64,000 bases of DNA, taken from the NCBI GenBank assembly GCA_000091205.1, contig AP006500.2. One strand, given 5' to 3'. The position numbers and the translations under genes were made by a program. Within the stretch, counting starts at the first letter, position 1. Every line of letters begins with the position of its first letter. The stretch is from Cyanidioschyzon merolae (taxonomy: Eukaryota). This document shows positions 1 through 45,903 of this stretch, piece after piece. Under the pieces are notes generated by a model. It saw only the letters and a list, made by a program, of their open reading frames with translations. It was not told the DNA's origin and searched no databases.

Positions 1-972
1 CGGACCCCATGAGTGACCTGCATGGCCATGGTCAGTTCAAGCGCGCTCCAATAGGTCTACATTGAATCCGGTTCATTGGTGGACTAAAAAGGATACAGTA
101 TCTGTGGGCGGCCTGAGCAGGCACCGCTGAGGCCCTGGACCCGAACTCTCAGGCAGTGATGATGTGAACGGCCTCGAGGGCGCGCAGGAGCTTGCGCGCG
201 ATGAACGTCGGTATCGCGCACTGCGTGCGTGAAGATTGCGTGGCTGCGGCAACAACGCTTGAGACGCATTGACGTTTCCAGGAGGAAGCATCAGCAGAAA
301 CGATTCCTTTCAGAAACGAATGAGAGGCGTCTCTTTGGTCGCGCTTCACCGCGGCGTCCAATGTTGCTTGCGCCGAGCTATGATTCTTTGCAGCGTACGC
401 ACGACTGGCGGGGTGGTGCTGGTGCAGCAAAACAGGCACAGAGGATGCCTGGGTTCATGGCAAATGTACTTGTCATTGGGATCGATTCCCGGGTCAGAAA
501 CGCGACACTCTTGTTTTGGCGTCGTGCCCGAGAGGTGTCTCTAGGAGCAGGAACACTCGGATGAGCTGGGTCCACAGCGTCTGCGTTGCCGCATACAGTG
601 TCAACTGCGCAGGGCTAGTCCCCTGGCACCGAGAAACGCCAGGACGGACGTCTTGTGCAAGAAGCGGACCGGTAGGACGAGCGCATGCAGCAGCCGCGGA
701 TACGCCTGCTTGGGCGCCACCGAAAGGCGCGACCTGTGCACCCTCGTGATGCACGGATTTCGCCACGAATGGGCGCCCAGGTGATGCCGGGCACCCGCTC
801 ATGAGCTTAGTGTTGCGTCATTGCGGGAAGCGCGGGCCCAGGTGCTCGCTGTGTCGTCACAATGGTGCCGGGCGCCCGCGGATACCGGTAGTTGTGCGTC
901 CTTGCGGGATGCACGGGCCCAGGTCTTCTCAGGTGATGGAGCGTTCTGCAAGCCAATCTTCACCCTTGCGGT

Positions 973-1746
973 TTACCAACACGTATACCCTGCATCCGCC
1001 AGGACAATCGCGCCAGTCATTAGACTGGAGGCATCGGATGCGAGGAACAGAACCACGGACGCTACCTCTTCGGGACGACCTACCCGATGTGTTGGCGTCA
1101 TATCAATCCATATCTTGTAAAAGGAATCATCGCTTAGCTGTTGGCGAATCAGCGGCGTCTCGATATACGTCGGGGCGACGGCATTGACGCGGACCCCGCG
1201 GGTCGCCCATTCAGCAGCCAGGGACCTCGTCAGATGATGTACGGCCGCTTTGGTCACGTTGTAAGCGGTCTGCAACTGCGGACGGTTGGCAATCTCTCCG
1301 GACATGGATCCGATATTCACGATACACCCTTGTCCTCGTTCAAGCATGCGACGCCCAAAACTTCGACAACAATAAAAAACGCCATCGACATTGACCTTCA
1401 TGTGACGGTGCCAGTGCTCATCGGTCATATGTTCGGTCGCCTGTCCCATGATGTTAATGCCAGCATTATTCACGAGAATATCGATTTGACCGTGCTCTTT
1501 CTGAATGCGCTCCGCAGCCGTCTCAACTGCGGCCGGGTCTGTGACGTCGACCTGCACGCCTGACGCCAAAATGCCCCGACTCTGCAGGTACTTGAGCGCT
1601 TGGTCAATTCGCTCGGGAACGAGCTCGGCAAGGACGACTTTGGCGCCAGCTTCACCCAGCGCCTCTGCACAGCAAAGTCCAATACCTTGGCCACCGCCGG
1701 TTATGACTGCTACACGTCCATCTAGACGGTACTTCTCGAGGTACAT
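973..1746 (-). CDS. Short-chain dehydrogenase/reductase (SDR) family oxidoreductase
   Basis: 257-aa ORF with an N-terminal Rossmann motif (VITGGGQGIG), an NNAG motif and the catalytic YNVTK (YxxxK) motif. Overall layout is a classical SDR. Confidence 0.85.
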   Translation of the reverse strand: MYLEKYRLDGRVAVITGGGQGIGLCCAEALGEAGAKVVLAELVPERIDQALKYLQSRGILASGVQVDVTDPAAVETAAERIQKEHGQIDILVNNAGINIMGQATEHMTDEHWHRHMKVNVDGVFYCCRSFGRRMLERGQGCIVNIGSMSGEIANRPQLQTAYNVTKAAVHHLTRSLAAEWATRGVRVNAVAPTYIETPLIRQQLSDDSFYKIWIDMTPTHRVGRPEEVASVVLFLASDASSLMTGAIVLADAGYTCW

Positions 1747-1987
1747 AGAGGGGAAACGGGTTAGATCACTTGGTTAATTCAAGCACAAAAGGCACCTGCT
1801 GTGACTACGATTTCTCAACACTCACACTTGACAAAGCGCTGAGCTTGGTTGATGCGTTTGCACGGCGCCTGATACCCAGTGAACACGCACAACCTCACGC
1901 AAGCGTTCTGCTCGCAGAGACGCTCATACAGCCCGGGGTCACCGCGTTACCGATCGCTGCGGCGAGATGCATGCGCCTCGACATCGA

Positions 1988-1988
<1 letters not shown>

Positions 1989-2059
<71 letters not shown>
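1989..2059. repeat. (GCGT)n microsatellite, about 17 units
   Basis: Perfect tetranucleotide run gcgtgcgtgcgt... visible directly in the sequence. Confidence 0.95.
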
Positions 2060-3384
2060 GTTGACACGGCGTCCAGTTCCATGCATCGATTCTAGGTACC
2101 ACTTATATCAGCAGAACATGCAGTGGGGCAGGTCGATTGACTTGCTGCTCGGATGTACACAAAAAAAGACGGGTTTCTTCCTGCTGCCGTCAACATCACC
2201 ATATCCAGCCTTTGTCTCCGACTATTTCCGTATCCTCGCTTGTGTTCCGTTTTAAATGAGCCGCTGAGCTTGCTCGTCTCAAACTCGATTGTCGGCAGTC
2301 AATGGATGTTGATGGCAGTTTGTTCAAGACCCGATTTCGCTGTTCCCACTGCGGCTGTCGACGTATTCCAAAGACAGGCGAAAGCTCCGACCGAAGCCTC
2401 GCTTGCTATTTTCATCTTCTTCGTATAGAGCCGCGCTGTGCTCCTGGCATCGTCGATACCTGGCTGTGGTCTGGTGCCGTCCGGTGCCCAGCACGCTCTC
2501 TACTCCTCCTCCGAGAGCCGCCCAGTGGCGCACGAATACGTGCATCATCGAGCGCTGCATGCCCTCGACGAGTACCCAAGGATACCGTCGATGCCCTCGT
2601 CCGTAACCGCCGGCATTGCCGTACACTGTGATCACGCGCTTGTTCTTTGCGATCCCAGCGGCACGTAATCCGACCGATACACGTGCGAGCGAACGCTCTC
2701 CCTTTCGATCGATGATTCGTGGAACGCGATGTTGTACGTGACGAACCGAGCACCGAAAGAGGAGCCCTGGCAACAGGTCAAGTCGCGATACGTTGATCCG
2801 TGTACGCTCCTCGCTTGTGCCGAGCAGTGACGCTCGATCCACCGGCAGCGGTACCTCCGATGACTCGAGTCCCGGTCCAAGATACTTGTCTATGCAGCCT
2901 GGAGAGACGGGATCGTCTCGGGACGTATCCCGTCAGGGGCGTCACCTTGGTGCAGCGTCCCGCTTCGTCGATCGCTATCGAGACAGGAGGATTTGCTTTT
3001 CGAACGGAATCGACTATTGGACGCGAGCGTTGCACTGAACTTGCGATAAGATCTTTTGTGGCAGTCGTGCGCAGGCGACGTCGAGTATCTATCATTGTCC
3101 ATCAATCGACCGGAATCACAGCGCCCGCGATTCTCCATGAAATACCCAGACAGGGATCTTGAAGAGTGTACGGTACGGGGATGCTGCACATCAGCACAGG
3201 AGCACACTGGAGGCTCGTACATATCCATTGCTTAATGATATCGGATATTTTACGAACGCATCTTCGATGACACTCCGCGAATCATTTTGACTCCAGCAAC
3301 GCAACGAATTCCATCCGCAAGTATTCTTCGAATATATCACTCGGAAAAGACGCCCCCGCATCCTAGAACTAGGTATGGATCCGA

Positions 3385-8400: not shown

Positions 8401-9076
8401 AAGCCTGCGCTTGGTAGAGATGAGCCGTGTAACAGTCCAGCTGCTCGGTTGCTCGACCTAACTCATCAATGGCTTCGGTAAGGGCGCTCAAATTGATTAT
8501 CATTTTGCCATCAGCTCGTCGTCGAGATGCACGCATTAGAGCCTCCTGCAGCAAACTCGACGGTGTAACGCTTTCAATGACTTTGAGCTCGGACGCTTTT
8601 TCGTTGGACTCCTTGGCGCCGGCAGCGGCAACGGCACGTTCCACCGTGCTCAAGGAGACGTGCAACGACTTGAGCTGACGAAAAGACAGCTTTTTCGTGC
8701 CTCTCTCCGAACTTGCTGCTTGTCGGTTGCCGTCCTCGGTCGTGTCACTGTGGCGAGGCCGTTCGGGAACGACGGCAGCCGCTGTCGCTCGGGACTGGTT
8801 TTGCCGTGCATTGTAAGCGCGGCAAGTGCTCTCGTACTCAGAATTACAGTGCGAAAACGAGCCAGTGCCTACCGTGGAGCTGCCTGAACCGCCAACGGAT
8901 CCTAACAAACGTAACTCTTTCGCCAGAGGTTCGAACGGGCGTCCCGCAATGTGAAGCTGCTCTGCTGAGAACGAGCGACCGACCCGGAGCCCCCGGGAGT
9001 GGCGTGTTTTTTCGGAGTTCCACGAACCAACGTGCTCACCGGTTTCACGGGGCCGTTCGTGAAGAGATTCCATCAA
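5441..9076 (-). CDS. Large conserved hypothetical protein (1211 aa), function not assignable from sequence
   Basis: Long uninterrupted ORF with coding-like composition and helical, coiled-coil-like stretches. I recognise no catalytic motif. A vesicle-tethering-complex subunit is only a weak guess. Confidence 0.55.
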   Translation of the reverse strand: MMESLHERPRETGEHVGSWNSEKTRHSRGLRVGRSFSAEQLHIAGRPFEPLAKELRLLGSVGGSGSSTVGTGSFSHCNSEYESTCRAYNARQNQSRATAAAVVPERPRHSDTTEDGNRQAASSERGTKKLSFRQLKSLHVSLSTVERAVAAAGAKESNEKASELKVIESVTPSSLLQEALMRASRRRADGKMIINLSALTEAIDELGRATEQLDCYTAHLYQAQALGSNRYVRLRAGPEAVAQRTLALDLVSDALSKALGTLSENSNLIRRSRKELHVSEELFERKVSKRSFLRSVVQSLETIRRMQQLLDEVRDALRLHQYDEANRLCKSFDLLYRSSLLRRELGSVVRKGRIFRDFSDVFMDLAARSLQCMFEQVQGLCCKFDAEVFQAVWNAYENLGAELVLAERFAYALEHVLAEIRARALECAQWRQASGATLNELSKREAAVASPLLASFTNVWQAAGAHANALAPRTPKSQHVPSNTAPSGGELASRPRNPWEFLDCWAGFLSAICYPVRQLFEHPRISKRFRSIVWEALQARLDADCDFMANQLVAEHDTYPVVTLAELWRSQLVLHALETQWISIAADDHFPEDADGRAAGIYSFDATAPRKHSMVTASPNGSVVRTSSLELNAERLLRGTRQRKQRTLPLATIHENIVKPLLKSYIDLFKRDIESRFMEIFATPNDWQAISVQSLGNTDTRNQMQLDQNRFVPETWRSYWETIRAWYAVPDADPDSCLVVKVLTHELASLRVEDLLSIIWERLHRDEGYSIPDDYTFTGASVFGIECIGTLASMLYAPSEYANVAPAGLFAEAIQQIALFAMYLLGVVYAPCFMATGILGGSLVQLEKYESLRPALSAYQRALLAHFLHEPGSSAASSTALQRPRSELNLSKFCCAVESAWTIGQVAALTLETAATFQEQTQVAYRPESRWRNAFVAEALGRANQLRGLADALQLALYRSLAPALVDTAEITRNVVQQLKQKKAPWWQSITQGQSPVSPSAEGAVHETLGEASAGGNEDAVSVSRASPYVAQITARLRMLHESRGLPAHAEEPLWRACVFGVLVAVQDGIAQIPVTSVDIQCVSQALVDAKTLIGNLEEVLGFHPLPYASELCQFIQLHLAPLPRILQWIATHRETLSRATMRGLVRHGVRLSIDDENASKTFSDEAIERLLTEAAAEVPETAARTSPQVTSEDATDGMQVSVTVLRLDAL

Positions 9077-9333
9077 AAGGTAGCATAATCAAGTCGGCAC
9101 AGCACGCACCAACAACGCCTTTCGAAAGAGAAACGTTGTCACCGGGCGTGTATAGTAGTGGCGAGTGACCTGCCCTAGACAAGAAGTCTCCAACTGAGGT
9201 GCAGACGCCTCTCCGTCTTTTTGGACCGGCCACCCACCACTTCTTCAAACTTTTTCTCATATAGTTCTACTTTGAGAGGTTTTCCAATAAAATTCTCTCG
9301 TATCAGCTCTGGAGGTCTATTCTCCAGCACCGC

Positions 9334-11419
9334 CTATTTCCTTACATTGATAGCGGCGTTAAAGTCTCGGTTCACGAATTCCATACGTTTCTTGCCATCA
9401 CTGGTTGTACTTATTAGTGCAAGTAGTCCACGAACTTTCGCTCTCATTTCCATTTGCTCTTCCGTCAGCGGTCCGTACCATTTCATATCCTCAGGGCTCC
9501 TCTGGCACTGTTCCATCTCGACCCCCTGAAGTGTGCATCCCGGTTCATGGTGTGGATAAGACGTTCGAAACTCATCAACAGGTATCGTGACAAAACGCCG
9601 TGCGCACTCCTAGTACGTTCTTGTCTTTGGAGCTGGAGTAGTCCCTTTTTGGATCTTCCAGCGCCCTGCTCTGTATGCTACTACGAGCCTCCGACTTTGA
9701 TCCTCTTTGAGGGCGCTCAGTTGATTGAAAAAGTTCGCGAACGCCCGCCGCTTACCGCAATATAAATTCATTCGCAAAAGAGCCCAACTGGGATTTGTAT
9801 ACTCCTCCCACAGTGCATCCCAATGAGGAACACGTACATTCATGAACTTCCGAAAAGCTTGTAAGCCCGCTCCTCGGCTCGTCACCTCGCTCAAAGCTTC
9901 CAGGTGATCCTTCATTCCTGAATTCCACGTAACAATTTTCTTCCTCACATTCATTATACCGGATTCTCGATAGTATCTCGCTCTCGAGAACCTCAATAGA
10001 CGCAAGTCTTTCTGACGTAAGTTGCCGTCAATGCCGTCTTCCCCACATTTGAGTGCGGCGATGGTAACGATATTCGTGTTCCCGGGGTCCGCGCCAACGA
10101 CCAAGTCGTTATCTTGCACTTTCTGTGTCGCAGGACCCGCCTGCTTCTCATCTTCATTCTTCGTCGCGGGCGGAGCTGGACGATCTGTCTTCAAGCGCCG
10201 ATTGTGCACACTCAAGGCTACTCCATCGGTTTCGATCATCCCAGCGAATACCTTTTGTTTGCTGACTTTGAGACGTTTGAAATCGAAGATATTCTTCCAG
10301 TACTTCTCCCGGTTTTCGCCGGAGAATCCCTCCTTGCTGACACCGAACTCGGGACTGATCTCGCTAATGATGCCGTAAAGGATTCTGGACTCGATAGTAA
10401 CAAAATGTGACTTGATGTTGCACATTGGAACCACGTTGAAGCGCTTCCCCATTAGGAACGCCTTCCGTCTCTCCCACTCTTCATTTTTTCCCTCAATCAG
10501 CTTCATCTCCGCCTTGCGCTCGAGTTCTCGACTCAGCGACACGAAATACCGCAGGATAAAGGGATGCCATCCTTTTCATAATTGATACCCTTTTTTGTGG
10601 ATGCATCAGCCCCAGAACCGCACGGTGCTCTTGAATAGCCGCACAGATCACAGAAGCTTTATTCTCTCCCTCGCATGATGTCTTCTTGTGGACGAATTCC
10701 ATTTCCTGTTCATTCTTACTATCGTTCGTGATGCTATCGATGATGGCCCATATCCTTTTGCGAGAGAGGCCCGGGTACAGCGCAAAGATGAAGCCTATCA
10801 TGAAGCGTTTGAGGTTCATAGTCATATGGTTCTTCCGGTACGTGAGGTACTTCGTCGCTCCGTAGGTGTAAATATCCCGGTTACCCATGTATCGAGTACC
10901 CTCGACGCGGAATTCCACGAAATTTTCGTAGAGGGCGTGCACTGGCTCATTATCCCTCCGCGCCTGCCGTGTACCAACCATCAGGTGGCGAACGAAGGTC
11001 TTGTTGAAAATTCCTCCGGAACCTCGACTGTTTTGATTTCCGTCGCGTTGCGATACATCTCCTTCACCAAATGCATTAGCCCTTACGAAGCGTGTATAAT
11101 ACTCATGGATTACGAATCGACACGGTTTCCGATGGCTTCTCGCATCTTCTCCTTATACGGATCTTTAATATGTCCAAGAAGACAGGCTTTCACGACCATC
11201 TCGTCGTACTGTCGTCTTTCTTGCAGTCTTCGACGTAAGGCCTCCCCCTTTTGCCTCTTTTCCGCTTCCTTTTCCTCTCGACTTGGCACTGTTTCTTGTT
11301 TTTTTTTTCTGGCAGCCGGCGACAATTGGTCCCCATGATCGTCGACTTGATTTTTCAATTCTTTCCTTTTTAATTTTTGAATATGAACGCTCTTTGAAAG
11401 CCTCTACTATAACCAGCAA
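9334..11419 (-). pseudogene. Fanzor / TnpB-like RuvC nuclease gene (eukaryotic OMEGA-type RNA-guided nuclease family), disrupted
   Basis: Minus-strand reading gives RuvC-I-like [18 protein letters not shown], then ...FVTIPVDEFRTSYPHHEPGC...C (the TSx-Cys/His zinc-finger segment), then RuvC-III ...GKKRMEFVNRDFNAAINVRK* ending at 9334. The frame is interrupted by an in-frame TAG at 9610-9612 and changes frame near 10493-10575. A Lys/Arg/Glu-rich N-terminal extension lies at 11110-11419. Combined length about 600-690 aa. Confidence 0.7.
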
Positions 11420-12423
11420 AAAATCACTTAAAAACTTTTGTTTGAGGTTTGAAACACAATCGAATTGAAAAACTATACTTTGCTACGACTTTAACGCAAA
11501 GACCACTTGTAAGTTACAGCAACGCGCTGATGATCTGGATCTCATTCCCCGTCAACGGCGACGTACACATCGTGAAAGCCTGATATGGAGGTGCGTGTAT
11601 CGACCGTGCTTAATAGAAAAGAACAAAAACAAACAATTGACTAGCAATTCGATGATATTTTCGTTCAACTCTCATGGTATATGTTAAAAGGAGGAAAAAC
11701 TTTCCATGTTGTCGAAAGCTTACGATCTAGGCGGAAGGTCCCGCGACCCTGACGCCTTTGCCGGGCTCGCGCTTGGTGCCCCCAACAATGACTGGTGCTT
11801 TGGTTAGATATGAGCAGCTCGTACACAACACACTTTATTCTGGGACTAGGAGCGGGTAGACTGCCTCTGGGCGTCGCACTGGTCGGGTTGCTCTCCTTGC
11901 ACATCGCTTCGCGCTGCTCCAAAAGGTACGTCTTTCTGCGCAGTTTGCATGCTCCGAGAATGACAATGTATCCCGACTCCGCGTCGAATGGACTACGCCT
12001 CGAGCCGACGCCCTCAGCTGGTATAGCAAAGCAGTTCTATCTCCATGCTGGATGCGCACCAGCCGTAAAAGCGCTTTGGCGGGTGCATCAAGGCAGGTAC
12101 TCGGCGTCAGAATAGAACGTACAAAAGGACCGGTACATCCGAAAGGAAGTGCAAGTGATGAAACTTGGAGGTAGGGTGCAGCATGATAATCGATTTTCCA
12201 ATTATCAATATCCGTCCCGCAATCTGGGATCATCCGTGGTCAACGTAAGCGGTTTGTCATTGGAAACAAAATCAACGCAAAAGACGCCATTGGGTTTGTG
12301 CACGCGTTTCGGGACGCCTCAGCTTTCTTGTTGTTTGTGAACAGTTTCTCTAGTATCCGGTTCTGCTTCTTTGCTTTTTTGCTGTCATCCCGCTATCTCA
12401 GAAAGTTCTGAGTCGAGCTGTGT

Positions 12424-14916: not shown

Positions 14917-17899
14917 CCAGCAGAAACGGAGATGAGTTCCGTGGACGCATACATCAGCGAGGCAGCGTCCCGTTGGGAAGACCCGAACCGCTAGACAATG
15001 TTAGAACACGTTCGCAGCAACGCCTGATGCGGGTGCAGCGAAGCGGTACACTTCTACGGCGAGTTTCGGTGTATGAAAGTGCCCTGAAAGCGATCTTTAG
15101 AGTGTGCTGGCCATGGCGCTGCGGTGCAAACTACCTGTAATGTGACAGGAACGTCTAGGAAACGGAAACGTTCTAATACAGTAAAAGCAAACCTAAGATT
15201 ACGTGAATCCTCGTCACCAAAATCGGTGTAAAATAGAACGGATCCACTACTCCAACCCAGACGTTCACAAACTAGTGCGGGTCTATCGCTGCTCTAGTGA
15301 CCACTAACCTCTGCGGACTTTTTCTGAGACAAATCGTTTCCCTCTCTCTTATCTGCGGCTTTAAAGATGCCAGTCTCTCACGTCCGTCTATTTCTGTTGT
15401 TAGCAGTCGAAGGATGTGGATCACACTTTTGAAATCCCTATTCCGCAGTTTCCGAAAACTGTGCACGCATTCCGAGCATAGGGAAAAGTTACGAGCAACA
15501 CATCGTTTGCGGTTTTCATCTTTTTGGTGCAGAGGCTCGATGCACGCTTCGCAGCAATGACACTCGGGTGCGTTCAGGTGTTTTTGTATGTCCACTAAAC
15601 GTCTTCTTCCGAAGGCTGCCGCACTGCGGCGCGCGAAGGCTTGCTACATCGTTTAGTACAGTCCCATAACGGGCACAGAAGGCTGGCTTCGATTTCCTCG
15701 ACAGTTCCACGTCCGGTAACGGACCCAATAATCGCCGGCTTCCTTTGGGCGATCACCTGAGCGAGTACGACGTCCGCTGTATGTGCAAGCGCATGCTGTT
15801 CTGCCCGATAAAGGATTCTTGGAACGCGCTTTTTTCAACGATGACACGAGTGTTGGAAGGGAAATAGGGGCAAGAGAAGAAGTCGAGAAATTTCGATACA
15901 TCTACGCCTCCTTCGTGCGAAGCGCTGGCGCACTCTCCTCTATCGCAATGGATCGTGTTGATGACTCAGGTCCAATTACCAGACCCGTTTCCGTTCAGGC
16001 AGAAGAGACCGGAGCACCTGGGAGCATATACCGTGAAAGGTGCCATGCTACTGTCGAGCGTCATTTCCTCGATGGCTTCAAGGAGAGGAGGATTTGTGTT
16101 TCGAACGGAATCGCCTCTTTGAAATGACATACGCAGTGAGCTTTCAGCATGGGCTTGAAAAATAATCTTCAAGGAGCAACGTCGGGATACTTTCCTTGTC
16201 AATCCCCGTACGCGAAATGCCGCATCTACCAGTTGCCTTGAGACACGAAGATCGAAAACATGAACCATGCGTGATTCGAGCTTGCATTATGTGAGGAAAA
16301 GAGAAGCGTCGAAAGTTGTACATTTGAATTGGATAGTGATACAGCCTGTTTTACGAACTCTTGTTCAATGGCGTCGCGAATCATCTTGACTCCGGTGACG
16401 TAAAGTAATCCAACGGCAAAGCGTGGAAGGAGCCGCTCCTGAAATACGTCCGAGAATCCTCAAACGATCATTGAATATGTAAGCCCTAACTGCTGCACTT
16501 CGAATGGCGACGCTGATCATCAAACAATTTCGAACAAAAATCTCAAGCAGGACATAGTGAGCAGTTCAACGTTCCATGGATATCTGACTCACGTGGCACA
16601 TATGCGAGTGGGCTCTCGGGATTGCTGTTGGCCAGCAGCTCATTCAATACGTATGCTTCTCGACGCTTGCCGACGCGTTGCGTCAAATATGAAGCGCTTG
16701 GACATGGAAGTACTCTCCTAGCCGCCGATCAAAACAGCGCCAGCGAAGATCCCTCTTTTGACTCACCAATATTGCACCTAACAAACGCAACGAAAGGGCC
16801 GCTGCTGCAGCGGCCACCACACGCTTGGTGCTGGGGGACACACGACGCTGGCTTCCTTGCTGGCGATGTTTCCGTATTTCATGACGAAGAACTACACGAA
16901 GAAAATCATAAAGTTCGTGTCGCCTTTGCGCTTTCCATAACGGAAAGCAGGCAGATGGTCCACCTGGCTGGCCCTGGTATTGGATCAGTTCCCCTAAGGT
17001 CTTTGTCAAGAATTGCAAGCGGATCGGAAGCGTTCTAGCTGAGGATCTCGATGCTCGCGCATAAGAATATCAACCCCATGCAACATATGGGCGCCGCATC
17101 AAACATACCTGGCCTGTCTTTCCTCCTGGTGTCAAGTCGCAGAACTTGAATGTCCCTCCTTGCATAAAAAAGCGCGAGAGAAAAGCGTGAGTATACGCGA
17201 CGCTTCCCGACGGACTCCAATCCTTGGTTTGCACGCGGCAAGTACTTCACTGTTGATCGGGCTATGTGCAGCAAGCGATGTGCGCCTAACAGACACAGGG
17301 TACCAGCAGCCTCCCGCAAGTCCTGCGGTAGCTGGCAACAACCTACATGGTATCGCCCTCGCTGCTCAGCAGCAGCGCGCCAATTGAAAGCACCTATGGC
17401 CCGCTTCTGCAGCAGACGCGCTCTGTGGTAAAGCAAAGCCGTTCTGACTCCTTGCTACGACCGCACCAGCGATATAGGCGCTATCGGGGCTGCTCAGGGC
17501 AGGCACGCAGCCCAAGATAGAACGTGGAAAATACCTAGGAGGGAACGTATCGGTCGTGGAACTCATACGGAACGATGGACGTTTGGCCAATCGATACTAT
17601 AAAGCCCTCAATTGGTAAACCTGGGTCTCTCTCTCCCTGTATATATGTACATATGCGTGTGGGTGTCAAAGATGTTTCCGACAATAAAAAGAAACAGAGC
17701 ATCTGTCGAGAGCCCCTGCATGCCTCGTCGAAGCGTCTCCCAGGAAAGCGCCCGTGTCATCGATCAGGAGGGATTACTTGGGGGTGCTTTGGTAGGCACC
17801 CCCGAAATGTCGCGACGCGCGCTGTTGCCCAGTCGCAATCTCGATTCGTGAACGTACCTACGCTCTAGATTCTCTTCTGGGTCGAAAACTCACTCAGTT

Positions 17900-20800
17900 A
17901 TGACGGGAGAGAGTGTGAGTGTGCAATACCAGCCCGACGGAGTTGCCATCATCGTTTTTTCTGCTCCTCCAGTGAATGCGCTTTCGGTGAACCTACGGCG
18001 TTTGCTGGCTTTGAACGTCGCGAACGTTGTTGCTGATCGGCGGGCGAAGGCGATCGTGCTGTATGGTGGCGAGAGCACCTTCTCGGCCGGGGCTGACGTC
18101 GGCGAGTTCCCTGAAAAGCTTGGAAGTGCGGAGAATATTATCTCTTTGGATACGGAGCCGTTCAAGACGCTGCTAGAGACTAGTCCGAAGCCGACTGTGG
18201 CCTGTATCACAGGCACAGCGCTTGGCGGAGGCCTGGAGCTCGCCCTCGCGTGCCACTTTCGCGTTGCTCTATCGGATGCAAAGCTTGGACTTCCGGAGCT
18301 CAGACTGGGCCTTATCCCCGGTCTTGGTGGTACCCAGCGTCTTCCCAGACTGATCGGCGTTGAGCCAGCACTCGATATGATTATGCACTCGCGAATCATT
18401 GACGGCGAGGAAGCGCATCGCTGCGGGCTCGTCGACCGTCTCGTTCCAGCGAGTCGTCGAGAGACGTTACTGCGAGAGGCCTGTGCTGTAGCCCTGGAAG
18501 TCGCCTCAGATCCTCAAAAGATGCCGCCACCGCTATTAACCCGAACGGACAAGCTTGGGAATGCCGACGTTGAGAAAATTCGCAGCAAGTATCTGCCGAG
18601 AGCTGTAGAAATGCGGCAGAAAACTGGTCAGATCCAGTTTGAAAGCTGTGTCCGAGCTGTCCTCGAAGGCATTGAGCGTGGTGGTGGCGATGCTGGCTGG
18701 GCACTAGAAGCGGAGCTTTTTCGACAGTGCGCGGCGTCGGAGGCATCACGAGCTCTCATTCATGTCTTTCTTGCCTCGCGAAGAACAGTGACGAATTTTA
18801 AGGCAGAGCCGCACCTTCATGAGCCTCGGACAGTTGCGGTGATCGGCGGTGGCCTCATGGGAAGCGGGATTGCAGCATGTATCCTACAAAATGGTGGACG
18901 CGTCGTCTTGAAAGAAGTCAATGAAAATGCCCTTGCTGCAGCTATACAGCGTATTGAGGCTATCTTGAGCCGCGCCAAGGTCGACACCGCGGATGCCAGG
19001 CGGCGACTTCAAGGCACGATCGAATTCGACAAAAAGCTTTTCAGTGATGTAGACCTCGTCGTCGAGGCAGCCGTCGAAAATGTACAAGCGAAGCAAGGCA
19101 TCTTTCGATCGCTGGCGGAATGCACGGGACCACACTGCATTCTGGCGACCAACACCAGCACGATCAACTTGGACTTGATCGGTGAAGCGATTCCGCAAGT
19201 CCATAAGGAAGGGCGTCTGATTGGTGCACACTTCTTCAGTCCTGCACATGTTATGCCACTCCTGGAAATTGTACGTGCGAACCGCACCAGAAACCGCGCA
19301 GTGCAGATGGTGCTTGCGTTTGCGAAACATCTGCGGAAAACACCAATCATTGTGGGCAACTGCGCCGGTTTTGCCGTGAACCGAATGTACTTCCCCCAGA
19401 CCCAAATGGCGTTCTTTCTCACTGAGTACCTCGGTATTCATCCATACGACATCGATCGTGCATGTCAAGAGGTGCTTGGTCTGCCAATGGGACCCTTCGG
19501 CCTTGCGGATCTCGTCGGTCTCGACATCTGTGATTCTGTGAACCAGGTTTTTAGCATGTCGTATCCCGAGCGAGTTTGTAGCCTCAGCATCGCGGGCAAG
19601 TTGATTGAGATGGGCAGAAAAGGTCAGAAGAGCGGTGCTGGCTTTTACCGCTACGGTGCGGATCATCGCAAACCGATCGAAGATAGGGAGATGTTGGATC
19701 CGCTCCTTGCCTCTATGACGCCGCCACCGCTGCGCGAGCCATTAACGCCGTTAGACATCGTGCAGATGATTTTCTTCCCGGTCGTCAACGAGGCCATGCG
19801 GGTTCTCGAGGAGCGTATTGCCGACAAAGCAGCTGACCTCGACGTTGCATCGGTGCTTGGCTACGGTTTTCCGGCCTATCGAGGTGGCCTGCTCTACTGG
19901 GCTCAGCATCTTCCCGGCGGGCCGCGTCTCATCCTGGAGCGCCTGCGCGAATGGGATACACGATTCGGTACGCAGTGCCCGCTATTCGCTCCGTCGTTTG
20001 CCCTCGAATGTGCGCTAAGGTCAACTGAACCTGTGCTGGAGCGGCCTCCTCGTCCTCGTTTAGCGACAGGCTCGGACGACGATATCGTGTTCGTGGCCGC
20101 TGTTCGCACCGCGATCGGAAAAGCGGGGCGCGGCCTCCTGAAGGATACGCTCCCCGAAGACATGCTTGCGCCGCTCATCGGGGCGCTCTTGGATCGATCA
20201 GCTGTGAAACCCGCCGAGGTCGGAGACGTTATCGTCGGAACCGCCCTACCTCGTGGTGATGCGGCTGCTGTGAGTTTGCGCGTCGCTGCGCTGTGTGCTG
20301 GCCTTCCTGATACCGTTCCAGTGCGGCTGGTAAATAGGCTGTGTGCGTCGGGGTTGCAGGCTATCGCTGACGCTGCCGCTGCCATTCAGCGAGGCGATTA
20401 TGGTATCGCTATAGCCGGGGGTGTGGAATCCATGTCGATGAATGCTATCCAGTTAAGTCTGGAGCGCAGAAGTCACCGCCTAGCGAGTTGCGCAGCAGCA
20501 GAGGATGCCTATCTCAGTATGGGAGACACCTCGGAAAACGTTGCAGCGCGCTTTGCGATCAGTCGAGCAGCGCAGGATCGCTTCGCAGCTTCGAGTCATG
20601 CTCGAGCGTCACGTGCATCGCTTTCGGGACGCTTCGAGCGAGAAATCCTTCCCATTTCGACACAAGTGTATCCCACCAGGAAAGCGGCGAAGCAAGCAGA
20701 CGGGAACCTCTCCACGGCGGAACGCGCGCCCGCAGTCCCACAACCGGTTGTGGCGCAACGCGATGAGGGTATTCGCTTGGGCGTCACCACTGGAGCGTTG

Positions 20801-21337
20801 GCCAAGCTCCCGCCAGTCTTCCGAAAGCAGGGTACCACTACAGCTGGGAATAGCTCCCAAGTCAGCGATGGAGCGGCACTGGTACTCTTAATGAAGCGCA
20901 GCGAGGCACGGCGGCGGGGTCTCCGGCCGCTGGGAACGTTCCGGGCCTTTGCGGTTGCAGGCGTGCCGCCAGCAATCATGGGCATAGGACCCGCGGCCGC
21001 TATTCCGAAGCTACTTTCGCAGGCTGGAGTCGAAGCTAATTTGATTGATCTATACGAAATCAATGAAGCATTTGCCTCTCAGGCGGAATACTGTGTCCAG
21101 AAACTTGGACTCAACCGAGACGTTCTCAATGTGAATGGCGGTGCAATTGCACTCGGTCATCCGTTGGGCATGTCCGGCGCTCGTCTCTGTGTGACGCTCT
21201 TGCACGAGCTTGCTATCCGGGAGGGGCGCTATGGCGTGGTCAGTATGTGTGTTGGTACCGGGATGGGAGCCGCTGCTCTACTGGAACGATGTGAAGATGA
21301 CGGTTTTGATGAGCGACGGTTGCGAGCAGCACTTTAA
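17900..21337 (+). CDS. Single-polypeptide trifunctional fatty-acid beta-oxidation enzyme: enoyl-CoA hydratase + 3-hydroxyacyl-CoA dehydrogenase + 3-ketoacyl-CoA thiolase (FadB-FadA-like fusion)
   Basis: N-terminal crotonase fold (…ACITGTALGGGLELALACHFRVA…). Central NAD-binding 3-HAD domain (VIGGGLMGSGIA…; HFFSPAHVMPLLEIV). C-terminal thiolase with N-terminal thiolase signature (DDDIVFVAAVRTAIGKAGRG), active-site Cys region (NRLCASGLQAIADAA) and C-terminal signature (NVNGGAIALGHPLGMSGARL). All are in one continuous 1145-aa ORF. Confidence 0.85.
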   Translation: MTGESVSVQYQPDGVAIIVFSAPPVNALSVNLRRLLALNVANVVADRRAKAIVLYGGESTFSAGADVGEFPEKLGSAENIISLDTEPFKTLLETSPKPTVACITGTALGGGLELALACHFRVALSDAKLGLPELRLGLIPGLGGTQRLPRLIGVEPALDMIMHSRIIDGEEAHRCGLVDRLVPASRRETLLREACAVALEVASDPQKMPPPLLTRTDKLGNADVEKIRSKYLPRAVEMRQKTGQIQFESCVRAVLEGIERGGGDAGWALEAELFRQCAASEASRALIHVFLASRRTVTNFKAEPHLHEPRTVAVIGGGLMGSGIAACILQNGGRVVLKEVNENALAAAIQRIEAILSRAKVDTADARRRLQGTIEFDKKLFSDVDLVVEAAVENVQAKQGIFRSLAECTGPHCILATNTSTINLDLIGEAIPQVHKEGRLIGAHFFSPAHVMPLLEIVRANRTRNRAVQMVLAFAKHLRKTPIIVGNCAGFAVNRMYFPQTQMAFFLTEYLGIHPYDIDRACQEVLGLPMGPFGLADLVGLDICDSVNQVFSMSYPERVCSLSIAGKLIEMGRKGQKSGAGFYRYGADHRKPIEDREMLDPLLASMTPPPLREPLTPLDIVQMIFFPVVNEAMRVLEERIADKAADLDVASVLGYGFPAYRGGLLYWAQHLPGGPRLILERLREWDTRFGTQCPLFAPSFALECALRSTEPVLERPPRPRLATGSDDDIVFVAAVRTAIGKAGRGLLKDTLPEDMLAPLIGALLDRSAVKPAEVGDVIVGTALPRGDAAAVSLRVAALCAGLPDTVPVRLVNRLCASGLQAIADAAAAIQRGDYGIAIAGGVESMSMNAIQLSLERRSHRLASCAAAEDAYLSMGDTSENVAARFAISRAAQDRFAASSHARASRASLSGRFEREILPISTQVYPTRKAAKQADGNLSTAERAPAVPQPVVAQRDEGIRLGVTTGALAKLPPVFRKQGTTTAGNSSQVSDGAALVLLMKRSEARRRGLRPLGTFRAFAVAGVPPAIMGIGPAAAIPKLLSQAGVEANLIDLYEINEAFASQAEYCVQKLGLNRDVLNVNGGAIALGHPLGMSGARLCVTLLHELAIREGRYGVVSMCVGTGMGAAALLERCEDDGFDERRLRAAL

Positions 21338-21760
21338 AACGATCAGAGCGCTATGTTAAGCGCGCTTACACAGGTACGAATGCGGCATTCTTGCGAGGAT
21401 CATGTCGACAGCGAAGAAATCGGGATCAGGTGAATTAATCGGGATGAGCTGGATTCGATGCACCCGCGAGCATCTAGTCGGCTTCCGGGAAACGGGGAAC
21501 GGATTGATCAACCGATTCTTCTGGCCCGGTATGCGAGCGGGCCCCAAGTCGGCTGCCGAGAAACGGACTTTTGGTCGACCCAGCGAGTTTCGCGACCTAG
21601 AGCCTTGCCGTGGGCGCTCGTAGCAATCCAGCATGTAGTACAATGGTGAACGCGCGAAAACAGGACAGATTTGCGGCACCGTCATGGGTATGCGCCCAAT
21701 TTTATCGATAACAAAGTCAATGCGAGCTGAAAGCGTAATACGAATATCTAAAACACCGTA

Positions 21761-24700
21761 CTCAGACCAGTGAATCCTGGAACACCTGGACCAGCAGCCC
21801 ATATTTGTTTCCGATCGTCTCTCTCGCAGATATGCAACTGACAGTGGCGTCCTTTGGATATGCAAAAAGTCGCGGATAGTCGTCCCGCTGGCACTGCTAG
21901 CTTGCGCGGAGACGGTCTTGAATGTACAAGTCATTCATTCTGTGATCAACAGGCGGGTCAGTCTCGCTTGAGCGGGTCGTTCTCCTGCCGCTCATGATCC
22001 CAAAATAGGGCCTTCCAAGTGCTATCGACATGACTGTCTCTCCATCAGTGTACGCCAGTCCATAGATGCTCAAAGAAACGGTATCAGAAAACCCACTGGA
22101 TGCGAATTTTCCATACCCTTGATATGAGCCGTGGTGAAGCGACATGGATGGGCAAAGAGAAAAAAAGGTGCCTCCCCAGGAGACCGTCACGAGCTGGACA
22201 ATTTCGATTCCGCATTGATAGGCGAACGCTTATGACAGGAGCGACCGGTACTCGCCTCTCTCGGTAACAGCTCTTTCGTGAAAAACGGAGGATCTAAACG
22301 TAGATACGCAAAGCGGTGCCAAAAATTCCTCTCGTAAAGCCTCGACCGGTGAGCGTAGCGACGACAACATCAGCCCCAGCGGCGATTCAAGCATGTAGTC
22401 GCCTGAGTCTCGGCAAACAGGCAGACTCAAGCAACACGTCTGCCTCCCTTCTTCGAAGCACTCTGTGGCCTCTGCTTCTCGCGTTATTCTGTCCTGCGGG
22501 TAGGCCACGTTGCTTGCTGTGACGCAAAGGCGCTCCACGAGTGCGCAGCTGAGACGAGCGTTGAGCTGGTGTTCGCTTCAGCCTGGAAGTGCACGCTCAG
22601 TCCAGTTGGAAGCGTCTTCTCTGTCCTCCGTCGCCATGCTTTCCCTCAGGATGCGTTCCATAAAAACGTTCGGATGCGTGACGCTGTCCTTGGACAAGTC
22701 GTTTTCAGTCTTCGTCAGCGTTGAACGACTCTGGTGCTGAGCGGGTCGCCTGCGGGGAGGGATCGGTGAAGCGCGCCTCAGGCGTTTGGCACGCTCGCGG
22801 CTGAGAAGCTCGTGGAAAAGGCAGCTGCGGGATCGGAAACATATATACGCGGGGAGGCAAGTTGCTGGCTCGCCGTCCATCCACGGGGTCTGACTGCCGG
22901 TGTAAGAAAATGGAAGTGGAGTGCGACGTGCACATCCACGCTACCCGCCACGAAAGGAGAATGCGAAGCAACCACCTGACAGAAAAGAGAAGGATCCCAG
23001 CCGCAAAGAGGACGACGAGAGTCAGGAAGGAAACCCTGCGCACTGGAAAGGCCAGTCCGAAACCAGCGCCTACACGTCGGTGCCAGAACGCATCAACGGA
23101 AAAAATTCTCCGAGTACGTGAGATGCCCAGGGCTATTAGGTATTGCGTAGAATGTGGTTGACGGAAGGCCCGCCTAGCTCTCCCCGAATGGATGCCCCTC
23201 GTGCAGCAACTGGCGGGAAGGGTTTCGGAGGCAGCGCTGCCAGCAGTTCGCATTCGTAGGGAGTTTTTGGTCAAACCCTCGAGCGACAGCACTAGGAATG
23301 CTCCGCTCCGAGCATGCCAGCGGGCCTGTTCGTGGTGTCGTTGACCAATACACACGCTGGCCGGCATCCGTTTCTGCGCTGCACTACATGGTTGCTCGGC
23401 CCATGGACAGCGTAGGTGCCAGGAAAAGTTTCGCCCAAACCTCAGAACCTATAGCCAAGAGCGGGTCCGTGGCGACTACCCTACGAGGCGCACCCCAGAG
23501 GCGTTGTACTCGTTGCGTCCACAGCGTTGTGGTCGACGAAATGTTGGCGACTGACGCAAGCGGCTCTTGGGATGTCCGTGGAGGCACGTGACGAGCTGGC
23601 TCCGGACGAGAAGGTGCTGGAAGCGAGCTCGGAGATGTCGCATCGAGAACGAGCGACGCTCCAGATCGTCCGAGCTCATGGAGTAGGTTTCTGTTCCGGA
23701 GCTGGGCACGTCGTCTCGGAAGGATTACGCGGGCGTTGACCTGGCCTAACTTGCATCCTGCGCTGCTAGGTTTTCGCGAACGCGGCGCTCCACCGCAAGG
23801 CAGACCCTCTGGTCGTATGTGAGCGCCTTTGCATCCTCAAACCCCTGGTCGATACGGTCCCCGCATTTCGGGGCAAAGCCCATGATACCACCGTGCATAT
23901 TTGTGTGGTGTACGACGTCCTCAGTGGTCTACGATGTGTGCGCACGAGCAGCTAGGGGGCACTCTGCCTATTTCGGGCAGAGCGTTGGCGGGGCTCGTTC
24001 AACGCCACTCGTTGGCTGGGAAAACACGGAAAGCGATGTACAGGGGCCTTGGGGACGCGCACGGCACATCAAACAGCATGCACTTTGCGAAACCGCGGCC
24101 CGATGGGAGCAACGAGACTCATATTCAACCGCTTACGGAAAACGAACGTGAAGGCTTCGTGGTGCGCGTGGATGCCGTTTCTGAGGGCGCCGTGGCCGTC
24201 ACCGTGCCCGTTCGTCACGGGGCAGCGCCAGAGACCTGAACGGAAAGCAAATGAGTCTGCTCCACGCCTCCAGGGCTCGGTATCATCCGGAGTTGGACGT
24301 GAACGACGCCAGCAGGCGTACCAACTCGTGGAATGACGACGTAAAGACCTGTCGTGACGCGCTGAGTACGGTATCGGGCAAAAGGAGATGCACTGCGCAC
24401 CTCATTCATAACGGGTATGAGCGACTAGATCGCTCATGCGGACGAGCCATGGCAGAGGAACGCGGGACCGAGCTCGAGTCTCCAACAGTCGCAACCGCTC
24501 GCGGGCACGAGGCGGGTATTCGCAAGCTTCCTCAAAGCACTGGAAACGGAACTGGCCGATCGGTTGCATCTTATAAAGATAGTGCATGGCGGTGGACGCG
24601 CTCTAGTTGCAGAACTGGACTGTCGTCGATAACGCACAAGGGATCCGCGAACCGGCACTGAAGTGCTCTCAGTGATGAGCTCTGGACGAGATTCTCACAT

Positions 24701-25185
24701 CGCGAGCACAGAGACACGCTGAAACTGCCGCTGGAGACGATTTGGAAACGGAGCCGGACGTATGAGATGACGTACGCTGAGTTCATTGAGCTCCAGGTGG
24801 CAATGCAGTCACAGTTGAGACGCTTGCTGTGGAGTGTCTCCATCACGAACGGGAAACGCGTCCAGTTTCTGAACCGAGATTTGAGCGCCCACATCAGCAT
24901 CTGGAACTGCGTCGTTCTTCAGGAGCGTCCATCGGCTTTACTTCAGGCGAGGCTTCGATTCGATTGTTTAGTATGCAGTGTGGGTATTGTGCTGGAATGC
25001 TGCGGACTCTCGATGAAAAACATCATGTATCATCAGAGCGGCGATTAAGTCCCCGCTTGGAGCAAGCCACTTGTATGGTACGGTCTGCACTGTATCAAGG
25101 CTGGACTGCCATATACCTTCGCCACGAACAATGCTCGTGGGTAATTGTCGAACACTCATCGTATTCCTTACTTGGGTATTACGGA
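21761..25185. repeat. 3.4-kb dispersed repeat R, copy 1 (no intact ORF)
   Basis: Near-identical to 39046-42468 and to 63229-64000. ORF-track entries are duplicated between copies with only point differences. Longest ORF is 220 aa with no recognisable domain. Confidence 0.9.
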
Positions 25186-38800: not shown

Positions 38801-39045
38801 ATGAGCTAGTCGGAGTTGCACCATTTCGTTCTGAAAAGTGTGGATAATTTGCACGCAGTTTGTTCCGTTGTCAACAGTGATGCCTCGCCAGATTTCTGAG
38901 CATCTCGACGATGCATGACAGCACAAGGAAGTTTCGGTGTTGCTATTCAGACTCTAATTATAAATATGACCAAGAGCACCACCGATCAAACAGCTATGCT
39001 GGCCGAGGCCGCGGAGTCCACGAATGCGGCTGACGGTGCGCTAAA

Positions 39046-42000
39046 CTCAGACCAGTGAATCCTGGAACACCTGGACCAGCAGCCCATATTTGTTTCCGAT
39101 CGTCTCTCTCGCAGATATGCAACTGACAGTGGCGTCCTTTGGATATGCAAAAAGTCGCGGATAGTCGTCCCGCTGGCACTGCTAGCTTGCGCGGAGACGG
39201 TCTTGAATGTACAAGTCATTCATTCTGTGATCAACAGGCGGGTCAGTCTCGCTTGAGCGGGTCGTTCTCCTGCCGCTCATGATCCCAAAATAGGGCCTTC
39301 CAAGTGCTATCGACATGACTGTCTCTCCATCAGTGTACGCCAGTCCACAGATGCTCAAAGAAACGGTATCAGAAAACCCACTGGATGCGAATTTTCCATA
39401 CCCTTGATATGAGCCGTGGTGAAGCGACATGGATGGGCAAAGAGAAAAAAAGGTGCCTCCCCAGGAGACCGTCACGAGCTGGACATTTTCGATTCCGCAT
39501 TGATAGGCGAACGCTTATGACAGGAGCGACCGGTACTCGCCTCTCTCGGCAACAGCTCTTTCGTGAAAAACGGAGGATCTAACCGTAGATACGCAAAGCG
39601 GTGCGAAATGCCTCTCGTAAAGCCTCGACCGGTGAGCGTAGCGACGACAACATCAGCCCCAGCGGCGATTCAAGCATGTAGTCGCCTGAGTATCGGCAAA
39701 CAGGCAGACTCAAGCAACACGTCTGCCTCCCTTCTTCGAAGCACTCTGTGGCCTCTGCTTCTCGCGTTATTCTGTCCTGCGGGTAGGCCACGTTGCTTGC
39801 TGTGACGCAAAGGCGCTCCACGAGTGCGCAGCTGAGACGAGCGTTGAGCTGGTGTTCGCTTCAGCCTGGAAGTGCACGCTCAGTCCAGTTGGAAGCGTCT
39901 TCTCTGTCCTCCGTCGCCATGCTTTCCCTCAGGATGCGTTCCATAAAAACGCTCGGATGCGTGACGCTGTCCTTGGACAAGTCGTTTTCAGTCTTCGTCA
40001 GCGTTGAACGACTCTGGTGCTGAGCGGGTCGCCTGCGGGGAGGGATCGGTGAAGCGCGCCTCAGGCGTTTGGCACGCTCGCGGCTGAGAAGCTCGTGGAA
40101 AAGGCAGCTGCGGGATCGGAAACATATATACGCGGGGAGGCAAGTTGCTGGCTCGCCGTCCATCCACGGGGTCTGACTGCCGGTGTAAGAAAATGGAAGT
40201 GGAGTGCGACGTGCACATCCACGCTACCCGCCACGAAAGGAGAATGCGAAGCAACCACCTGACAGAAAAGAGAAGGATCCCAGCCGCAAAGAGGACGACG
40301 AGAGTCAGGAAGGAAACCCTGCGCACTGGAAAGGCCAGTCCGAAACCAGCGCCTACACGTCGGTGCCAGAACGCATCAACGGAAAAAATTCTCCGAGTAC
40401 GTGAGATGCCCAGGGCTATTAGGTATTGCGTAGAATGTGGTTGTCGGAAGGCTCGCCTAGCTCTCCCCGAATGGATGCCCCTCGTGCAGCAACTGGCGGC
40501 AAGGGTTTCGGAGGCAGCGCTGCCAGCAGTTCGCATTCGTAGGGAGTTTTTGGTCAAACCCTCGAGCGACAGCACTAGGAATGCTCCGCTCCGAGCATGC
40601 CAGCGGGCCTGTTCGTGGTGTCATTGACCAATACACACGCTGGCCGGCATCCGTTTCTGCGCTGCACTACATGGTTGCTCGGCCCATGGACAGCGTAGGT
40701 GCCAGGAAAAGTTTCGCCCAAACCTCAGAACCCATAGCCAAGAGCGGGTCCGTGGCGACTACCCTACGAGGCGCACCCCAGAGGCGTTGTACTCGTTGCG
40801 TCCACAGCGTTGTGGTCGACGAAATGTTGGCGACTGACGCAAGCGGCTCTTGGGATGTCCGTGGAGGCACGTGACGAGCTGGCTCCGGACGAGAAGGTGC
40901 TGGAAGCGAGCTCGGAGATGTCGCATCGAGAACGAGCGACGCTCCAGATCGTCCGAGCTCATGGAGTAGGTTTCTGTTCCGGAGCTGGGCACGTCGTCTC
41001 GGAAGGATTACGCGGGCGTTGACCTGGCCTAACTTGCATCCTGCGCTGCTAGGTTTTCGCGAACGCGGCGCTCCACCGCAAGGCAGACCCTCTGGTCGTA
41101 TGTGAGCGCCTTTGCATCCTCAAACCCCTGGTCGATACGGTCCCCGCATTTCGGGGCAAAGCCCATGATACCACCGTGCATATTTGTGTGGTGTACGACG
41201 TCCTCAGTGGTCTACGATGTGTGCGCACGAGCAGCTAGGGGGCACTCTACCTATTTCGGGCAGAGCGTTGGCGGGGCTCGTTCATCGCCACTCGTTGGCT
41301 GGGAAAACACGGAAAGCGATGTACAGGGGCCTTGGAGACGCGCACGGCACATCAAACAGCATGCACTTTGCGAAACCCCGGCCCGCTCGGAGCAACGAGA
41401 CTCATATTCAACCGCTTACGGAAAACGAACGTGAAGGCTTCGTGGTGCGCGTGGATGCCGTTTCTGAGGGCGCCGTGGCCGTCACCGTGCCCGTTCGTCA
41501 CGGGGCAGCGCCAGAGACCTGAACGGAAAGCAAATGAGTCTGCTCCACGCCTCCAGGGCCCGGTATCATCCGGAGTTGGACGTGAACGACGCCAGCAGGC
41601 GTACCAACTCGTGGAATGACGACGTAAAGACCTGTCGTGACGCGCTGAGTACGGTATCGGGCAAAAGGAGATGCACTGCGCACCTCATTCATAACGGGTA
41701 TGAGCGACTAGATCGCTCATGCGGACGAGCCATGGCAGAGGAACGCGGGACCGAGCTCGAGTCTCCAACAGTCGCAACCGCTCGCGGGCACGAGGCGGGT
41801 ATTCGCAAGCTTCCTCAAAGCACTGGAAACGGAACTGGCCGATCGGTTGCATCTTATAAAGATAGTGCATGGCGGTGGACGCGCTCTAGTTGCAGAACTG
41901 GACTGTCGTCGATAACGCACAAGGGATCCGCGAACCGGCACTGAAGTGCTCTCGGTGATGAGCTCTGGACGAGATTCTCACATCGCGAGCACAGAGACAC

Positions 42001-42468
42001 GCTGAAACTGCCGGTGAAGACGATTTGGAAACGGAGCCAGACGTATGAGATGACGTACGCTGAGTTCATTGAGCTCCAGGTGGCAATGCACTCACAGTTG
42101 AGACGCTTGCTGTGGAGTGTCTCCATCACGAACGGGAAACGCGTCCAGTTTCTGAACCGAGATTTGAGCGCCCATATCAGCATCTGGAACTGCATCGTTC
42201 TTCAGGAGCGTCCATCGGCTTTACTTCAGGCGAGGCTTCGATTCGATTGTCTAGTATGCAGTGTGGGTATTGTGCTGGAATGCTGCGGACTCTCGATGAA
42301 AAACATCATGTATCATCAGAGCGGCGATTAAGTCCCCGCTTGGAGCAAGCCACTTGTATGGTACGGTCTGCACTGTATCAAGGCCGGACTGCCATATACC
42401 TTCGCCACGAACAATGTTCGTGGGTAATTGTGGAACACTCATCGTATTCCTTACTTGGGTATTACGGA
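39046..42468. repeat. 3.4-kb dispersed repeat R, copy 2
   Basis: Full-length direct copy of 21761-25185 with about 98-99% identity, inferred from duplicated ORF translations that differ only by point substitutions. Flanks are unrelated. Confidence 0.9.
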
Positions 42469-45745: not shown

Positions 45746-45903
45746 CGTCGCTGGAAAGACATACATTCTATGCCAGGAAAGTATTTTCGTGGCGCCGACA
45801 TGAGCGCCGCCTGCACCTGCAATCCTACCCGCTGATCCGAAGAGCGCTCTACGCATACGCTCTGGGCTATTTTCTGCAGCTTTCTTGAGGTTTAGCACAT
45901 ATA

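Follow-up and report, generated by a model that had tools for sequence, protein, structure and literature searches.

A decayed full-length copy of the Fanzor1-bearing element CMe-1A, one of about 150 old copies in the Cyanidioschyzon merolae 10D nuclear genome, almost certainly occupies positions 9116 to 12262 (minus strand) of the 64,000-nucleotide stretch of contig AP006500.2 analyzed here, which is referred to below as the window. The locus is already known, as CMe-1A was published in 2013 from the same genome (Bao & Jurka 2013, Mobile DNA 4:12, PMC3627910). According to that study, CMe-1A has a 3169-bp consensus and encodes a 734-amino-acid protein, CMe-1, classed as Fanzor1, and each of its roughly 150 copies is about 80% identical to the consensus. 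The element was described as lacking inverted repeats, with an undetermined target-site duplication, and its first 635 bp are 95% identical to a separate element, TE-N2_CMe. When aligned to the consensus, which was taken from the supplementary file of that paper and was used to define both the lesions and the extent of the element, window positions 12262 to 9116 match consensus positions 1 to 3169 with 84.4% nucleotide identity over 3134 aligned positions. The window copy therefore fits the definition of the family, which asks for both ends and for a nucleotide identity of at least 80% along most of the consensus, and the interval of 9334 to 11419 proposed in an earlier note on this DNA covers a part of it. 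From 5' to 3' on the minus strand, the element consists of a TE-N2_CMe-like segment (11619 to 12262, assigned to consensus positions 1 to 635 by coordinate mapping), a leader upstream of the Fanzor1 frame (11359 to 11618, consensus positions 636 to 905), the remnant of the CMe-1 reading frame (9175 to 11358), and a noncoding tail from the native stop codon to the right end of the element (9116 to 9174, delimited by comparison of copies). Over 726 of 734 residues, the conceptual protein shares 75.9% identity with published CMe-1. No categorical difference separates the window copy from the published family, with which it shares the genome, both ends, the lack of inverted repeats, and an identity of about 80% to the consensus; the window copy is disrupted, whereas some published copies are intact. 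Nothing contradicts the identification as CMe-1A and Fanzor1.

A search for inverted repeats at the ends of the element returned nothing beyond a weak shared CACGCACC, which was judged to be due to chance, in agreement with the published description. A search for a transposase with DDE_3 similarity within 9116 to 12262 also found none, and the copy does not combine the DDE transposase, inverted repeats, and TA duplication that characterize an autonomous Tc1/mariner element. This bears out the description of the copy in the earlier note as solo or nonautonomous, lying between a 1211-amino-acid gene and CCDC6 with no transposase.

The gene remnant is supported as a eukaryotic TnpB/Fanzor RuvC nuclease of the Fanzor1 type. 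Three-frame translation of the minus strand of 9000 to 11800 yields the RuvC-I motif, VDEFRTSYPHHEPGC, and NRDFNAAINVRK in that order, as the earlier note had read them. The RuvC-I catalytic Asp (GAC, 10087 to 10089) lies in a GADPG motif (10081 to 10095) whose D-P-G is invariant or nearly so in 68 homologs, and it aligns with D383 of Spizellomyces punctatus Fanzor1 (SpuFz1); SpuFz1 residue numbers were counted along the HMMER alignment to the maltose-binding protein-tagged SpuFz1 chain with an offset of 394. The RuvC-III catalytic Asp (GAC, 9364 to 9366) lies in NRDFNAA of NRDFNAAINVRK and aligns with SpuFz1 D606; R-D-x-N-A-x-N-I is nearly invariant in the family alignment, and the window copy keeps NRDFNAAIN. 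The RuvC-II glutamate, which the earlier note could not place with certainty, can now be located. In the homolog alignment, the canonical RuvC-II position is occupied by the Gly of VVAYGAGR in the family, and by an Arg in the window copy as a result of mutation (9670 to 9672). A rearranged catalytic site has been described in Fanzor proteins by Jiang et al., a study by Yoon et al. gives the Fanzor signature as "DPG plus shifted glutamate," and Saito et al. report that D383, E541, and D606 of SpuFz1 coordinate two magnesium ions. The catalytic glutamate is therefore assigned to the C-terminally shifted Glu of VDEFRTS in VDEFRTSYPHHEPGC (GAG, 9571 to 9573), which aligns with SpuFz1 E541, lies 33 residues downstream of the VVAYGAG site, and is nearly invariant in the family as part of DEFRT. 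All three catalytic residues (Asp, shifted Glu, and Asp) are retained in the window copy.

Profile and structural comparisons, both of which had been proposed earlier as checks, point to Fanzor1. Intact relatives match the locus in tblastn searches (E = 6e-119), and a profile built from the 68 homologs, when searched against all PDB sequences, retrieved the Fanzor1 proteins of Parasitella parasitica (9CF0; E = 2.3e-19), S. punctatus (8GKH; E = 1.4e-14), and Guillardia theta (9CER; E = 0.013). It was only the 68-sequence profile that reached Fanzor1, as a single-sequence search of PDB sequences with the intact relative P0043 gave no match. An AlphaFold2 model of P0043 based on the 68-homolog alignment had a mean predicted local distance difference test score (pLDDT) of 88 and a predicted template modeling score of 0.85. 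In a Foldseek search of the PDB, the top seven matches of this model were all Fanzor1 structures, with E values of 1e-16 to 1e-17 and template modeling scores of 0.55 to 0.71, and Cas12f proteins followed far behind (E values of about 1e-3 to 1e-4). The structures of SpuFz1 (8GKH and 9CEU to 9CEZ) and of the Parasitella and Guillardia proteins (9CF0 and 9CER) resemble P0043 in overall fold, and the Asp of DPG, the shifted Glu within D-E-[FY]-x-T-S, and the Asp of RD are common to both sides; sequence identity is only 11 to 16%. They are also transposon borne. The SpuFz1 element has 30-nucleotide inverted repeats, whereas CMe-1A has none. TnpB (ISDra2) and Cas12f resemble the CMe-1 clade in having a RuvC fold with its three RuvC segments in the same order. 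They differ in that their RuvC-II Glu occupies the canonical site and a zinc ribbon is present, and in that they lack the large, helical half at the N terminus and the basic N-terminal region, predicted with low confidence, that are seen here.

Several results weigh against the Fanzor1 assignment. Pfam returned no match on the window conceptual protein, so that the hidden Markov model search was positive for the 68-homolog profile against Fanzor1 sequences and negative for Pfam; the fold was obtained for P0043, which is about 40% identical to the window copy and 43% identical to CMe-1, rather than for the window copy itself; and the C4 zinc ribbon of Fanzor1 is missing from the clade, as described below. 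The Pfam family PF07282 (OrfB_Zn_ribbon/Cas12f1-like TNB) matched the close homolog P0001 below threshold (E = 0.23), and two distant relatives, P0077 and P0108, exceeded its curated cutoff (27.1 and 26.6 bits versus 26.3). The missing Pfam match could also be cited in favor of a chance resemblance of the motifs, or of contaminating prokaryotic IS200/IS605 or IS607 DNA carrying TnpB. By profile and by fold, however, the best matches are eukaryotic Fanzor1 proteins, with Cas12f and other relatives from prokaryotes ranking far lower, and CMe-1A is a repeat already published from C. merolae. The genes that flank the element are of eukaryotic type (USP7 with a MATH domain, CCDC6-like, Vps54-like, and Use1), and the product of the open reading frame (ORF) at 17900 to 21334, a 1145-amino-acid fused beta-oxidation protein, is 100% identical to C. 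merolae BAM82571.1/XP_005538607.1, which identifies the host as C. merolae 10D. Prokaryotic contamination was rejected on the basis of this gene context and the Fanzor1 matches, and the probability of chance or contamination is close to negligible.

The CMe-1 clade departs from the known Fanzor1 proteins in the zinc ribbon. A C4 zinc finger is part of the family-defining motif of Fanzor (Bao & Jurka 2013, PMC3627910), a CCCC zinc finger is shared by SpuFz1, where it lies in the NUC domain, and TnpB (Saito et al.), and a zinc-finger motif is reported in "many" Fanzors (Yoon et al.). In contrast, no CxxC was found between the shifted Glu and RuvC-III in any of the 68 aligned homologs, and among 177 relatives with both flanking motifs, 174 were without CxxC in this segment and none had two. 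The CMe-1 consensus has two Cys residues in the segment between RuvC-II and RuvC-III, at noncanonical positions, and the Cys/His residues that were previously read as a zinc finger (THHELGC...C) occur in the CMe-1 subfamily only, where they lie off the canonical positions; they do not form a conserved zinc finger. Bao & Jurka nevertheless filed CMe-1 under Fanzor1, and both profile and fold group the clade there. Only the Cys of RGLLWC is common in the segment among the relatives. In the P0043 model, the segment without the zinc ribbon is predicted with a pLDDT of about 81 to 97. An explicit description of a zinc-finger-less Fanzor1 clade was not found in the literature searched. As a tentative proposal of low confidence, CMe-1 may represent, together with about 170 or more related protein clusters, a Fanzor1 lineage in which the C4 ribbon has been lost entirely, whereas the catalytic triad is retained and a Fanzor1 fold is predicted with confidence. 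Active copies of such a lineage would be zinc-independent RNA-guided nucleases, possibly heat tolerant; C. merolae is a thermoacidophile.

The gene in the window copy is dead. The 726-residue conceptual protein can be written only by reading through several stop codons and changing frame twice. In comparison with the consensus, the start codon is lost (ATG to TTG, 11356 to 11358), and four premature stops replace Tyr82 (TAC to TAA, 11110 to 11112), Ser91 (TCA to TAA, 11083 to 11085), Lys590 (AAG to TAG, 9610 to 9612), and Cys682 (TGT to TAG, 9334 to 9336). In addition, a 1-nucleotide deletion near 11011 (11008 to 11012; consensus position 1251) and an 11-nucleotide deletion near 10575 (10556 to 10576; consensus position 1688) shift the frame, and a 12-nucleotide deletion near 10177 is in frame. 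Conserved residues are also substituted, such as AYGAG to AYRAG and TNLKNH to TYRKNH, and the native stop TAG is retained at 9175 to 9177. The earlier note had correctly recognized the in-frame TAG at 9610 to 9612 and a frame change at 10493 to 10575, which corresponds to the 11-nucleotide deletion, and it overlooked both TAA codons, the 1-nucleotide deletion, and the TTG start. It also took RuvC-III as the C terminus, ending at 9334; the TAG there is a premature stop, and the frame continues to 9175 to 9177. Of its basic N-terminal segment at 11110 to 11419, the basic stretch is present, and 11359 to 11419 belongs to the noncoding 5' leader.

Two metagenome contigs, L044 and L046, contain the same locus with 98.8% and 99.5% identity, respectively, to the window over about 10 kb, and in both of these independently assembled copies the four stops and the TTG recur. 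Since the lesions are shared, they are real and older than the split of these strains, and assembly error is excluded. Short introns are likewise excluded, as every stop stands in place of a single sense codon and the frameshifts are deletions of 1 and 11 nucleotides. That the gene is intact and disrupted in appearance only, through short introns, programmed recoding, or errors of sequencing or assembly, might be argued from the long, well-preserved stretches of frame and from the three retained catalytic residues. The single-codon changes amid conserved codons, the deletions in conserved coding sequence, the lost ATG, the substituted conserved residues, the identical lesions in two assemblies, and the uninterrupted ORFs of the large neighboring genes in the window make this highly improbable. 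With the start lost, four stops, and two frameshifts, the window copy therefore yields no nuclease and is a nonfunctional relic. Among the three options previously offered (a recent pseudogene, introns, or an assembly error), a pseudogene is the sole survivor; it is not a recent one, as the copy has diverged by 16% from the consensus. The element differs from its counterparts in L044 and L046 about two to three times more often than its flanks do, and the 39 in-frame substitutions are distributed as 9, 12, and 18 over codon positions 1, 2, and 3. This distribution is not clearly nonuniform and, in a test of low power, is consistent with neutral drift. There is modest support for the view that the window copy was already drifting free of selection when these closely related strains diverged and has continued to do so.

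Sister copies and more distant relatives place this relic in a larger family. The conceptual protein has 46 matches among public proteins (32 to 82% identity), all metagenomic and many of them fragments, including three intact relatives of about 699 amino acids (P0042 to P0044) that are about 40% identical to it. A profile search added 79 further distant relatives, and when 1.84 billion representative proteins were searched exhaustively with a profile, 3143 matched at E values of 0.001 or less. From 71 related metagenome loci that were fetched, 47 distinct CMe-1A copies were recovered, with a mean identity to the consensus of 85%, and nearly all of them carry stops or frameshifts. Conservation across the 47 copies is higher at codon positions 1 and 2 (about 0.88 to 0.92) than at position 3 (about 0.80), and much of the divergence therefore arose under selection on the protein, as was also argued by Bao & Jurka (2013, PMC3627910). 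The copies vary upstream of RuvC-I (window positions of about 10100 to 10180) in the number of units of an acidic repeat of about 24 residues (...ATQEVEDNDFIVD..KHEE.K..), with three to five units in P0001, P0007, and P0024 and one in the consensus and the window copy; the 12-nucleotide in-frame deletion of the window copy falls within this region, which forms a linker of variable length.

Several contigs have P0043 immediately downstream of a DDE_3 transposase of the Tc1/mariner type, which recalls the Fanzor1 genes carried by Tc1/mariner elements such as PUl-1 of Pythium ultimum (Bao & Jurka 2013). The window copy differs from these in having no transposase, inverted repeats, or TA duplication and in carrying 635 bp of TE-N2_CMe-like sequence at its 5' end. 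Elsewhere in the window, a DDE_3 transposase remnant (44490 to 45283, plus strand), up to 34% identical to the transposase adjacent to P0043 (E = 6e-18), is directly followed by a CMe-1-like Fanzor C-terminal fragment (45401 to 45755), and metagenome contigs show the same order. This gives a hint that an element of the Tc1/mariner type formerly carried the CMe-1 lineage.

The 3' end of the element is sharply defined: the copies remain similar for 59 nucleotides beyond the stop codon, and the similarity breaks off at ...GAAAGGCG (window position 9116), which is the end of the published consensus. By analogy with other Fanzor1 elements, this tail is the expected end position of a guide-RNA scaffold. 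Going by the characterized Fanzor1 proteins, the product of an intact copy would associate with a guide RNA made from the element's 3' end and would cut matching DNA at a single RuvC site composed of the DPG Asp, the shifted DEFRTS Glu, and the NRD Asp. A guide RNA and nuclease activity have been demonstrated for SpuFz1; for CMe-1 they are predicted. The last 23 nucleotides (9116 to 9138) are capable of forming a hairpin, with 78% of cells paired in comparison with 33 to 44% for most shifted controls. Other results lend no support to a conserved RNA at this end. Covariation in the terminal hairpin was not above that in shuffles or controls, and a second register fits another subfamily; the RNAalifold consensus of the last 257 nucleotides was weak (-13.7 kcal/mol, with a covariation term of +0.12); and a search of Rfam returned no match. 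Third codon positions near the 3' end showed no extra conservation across copies.

With both termini intact, mobilization in trans or residual expression of RNA may still be conceivable for the window copy, which tempers its reading as an inert relic. Under this explanation, the coding part would be dead and the element would remain functional as DNA or RNA, being moved, or supplying a guide RNA, with the help of Fanzor1 protein from one of the few intact CMe-1A copies. Both consensus ends are present, the terminal 23 nucleotides are pairable as described, and donors of the protein may exist: some CMe-1A copies still encode an intact protein (Bao & Jurka 2013, PMC3627910), the metagenome locus L001 (10001 to 12259, encoding P0001) is stop free over the whole match, and L019 has an 803-amino-acid stop-free frame despite stops and frame changes elsewhere in its match. 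The window copy, however, is 16% diverged from the consensus, its terminal hairpin carries a substitution that is absent from L044 and L046, the insertion is fixed in the related strains, and CMe-1A has no inverted repeats or target-site duplication by which movement could be explained (Bao & Jurka 2013). Together with the missing covariation support for a 3' RNA structure and the missing extra conservation of 3' third positions, these observations make continued function of the element unlikely, and the window copy is better read as a decayed relic.

Other sequences in the window are related to CMe-1A or to Fanzor to various degrees. The earlier note had counted five members of one family; the window copy and three short CMe-1A-like fragments, with 67 to 72% identity to the consensus, belong together, and two further copies represent a different Fanzor-like sequence. 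The fragments lie at 45401 to 45755 (plus strand; 72% identity to consensus positions 2737 to 3096), at 42776 to 43015 with 43116 to 43301 (minus strand), and at 58544 to 58791 with 58867 to 59088 (minus strand). The latter two (42776 to 43301 and 58544 to 59088) are about 75% identical to each other, and in each of them a piece matching consensus positions 787 to 1007, which comprise the leader and the start of the frame, is joined to one matching positions 2833 to 3083 at the end of the frame; both resemble nonautonomous derivatives with an internal deletion. In addition, a TE-N2_CMe-like 5' part is found at 17411 to 17624 (minus strand).

The different Fanzor-like sequence consists of decayed remnants at 23746 to 24994 and 41029 to 42277, which are 99% identical copies, show 26% protein identity to the CMe-1 group, and keep FLNRDLSA. 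They are parts of a 3.4-kb repeat with 99% identity (21760 to 25185 and 39045 to 42468), of which a third, partial copy (63229 to 64000) begins 300 bp into the unit and runs off the end of the window. Each 3.4-kb copy holds a decayed DDE_3 (Tc1/mariner-like) remnant, such as that at 21852 to 22643, and the Fanzor-like remnant lies about 190 bp before the right end of the repeat. No inverted repeats or obvious target duplications were found for these repeats. The possibility that they are young, active mariner-Fanzor elements was rejected in view of their heavily decayed coding remnants and the lack of inverted repeats; near-identical copies of a dead sequence suggest recent duplication or mobilization in trans.

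A perfect inverted repeat of 1423 nucleotides (100% complementary) is formed by 48336 to 49758 and 51333 to 52755, with 1574 nucleotides between the arms, and each arm holds a 13-nucleotide tandem array, (AGCGCATGAACCG)n, at about 49256 to 49338 and 51753 to 51835. Three origins are conceivable for this structure: an element whose inverted ends are long, a duplication in palindromic form, and an artifact of assembly. Short dispersed repeats with about 70 to 77% identity form two groups (2964 to 3042, 16065 to 16143, and 52230 to 52308; 15870 to 15937, 52039 to 52106, and 48985 to 49052), one of which lies beside a weak DDE_3-like match (16520 to 15798; E = 4e-4); another old DNA transposon is their probable source.

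The CMe-1A copy occupies the intergenic space between the Vps54-like and CCDC6-like genes. Its right end (9116) is 43 bp upstream of the first ATG (9071 to 9073) of the 1211-amino-acid Vps54-like ORF on the same strand, and its left end (12262) is about 160 bp from the start (12424) of the divergent CCDC6-like ORF. The relic thus takes up almost the whole intergenic region, and presumably the promoter space, of the two genes. For annotation, the interval 9116 to 12262 should be masked as CMe-1A. The family is of some wider interest: the conservation pattern of the sister copies indicates that CMe-1A long kept its coding capacity, and the family falls in a Fanzor1 clade that lacks the zinc ribbon, a feature normally counted in the signature of Fanzor proteins.

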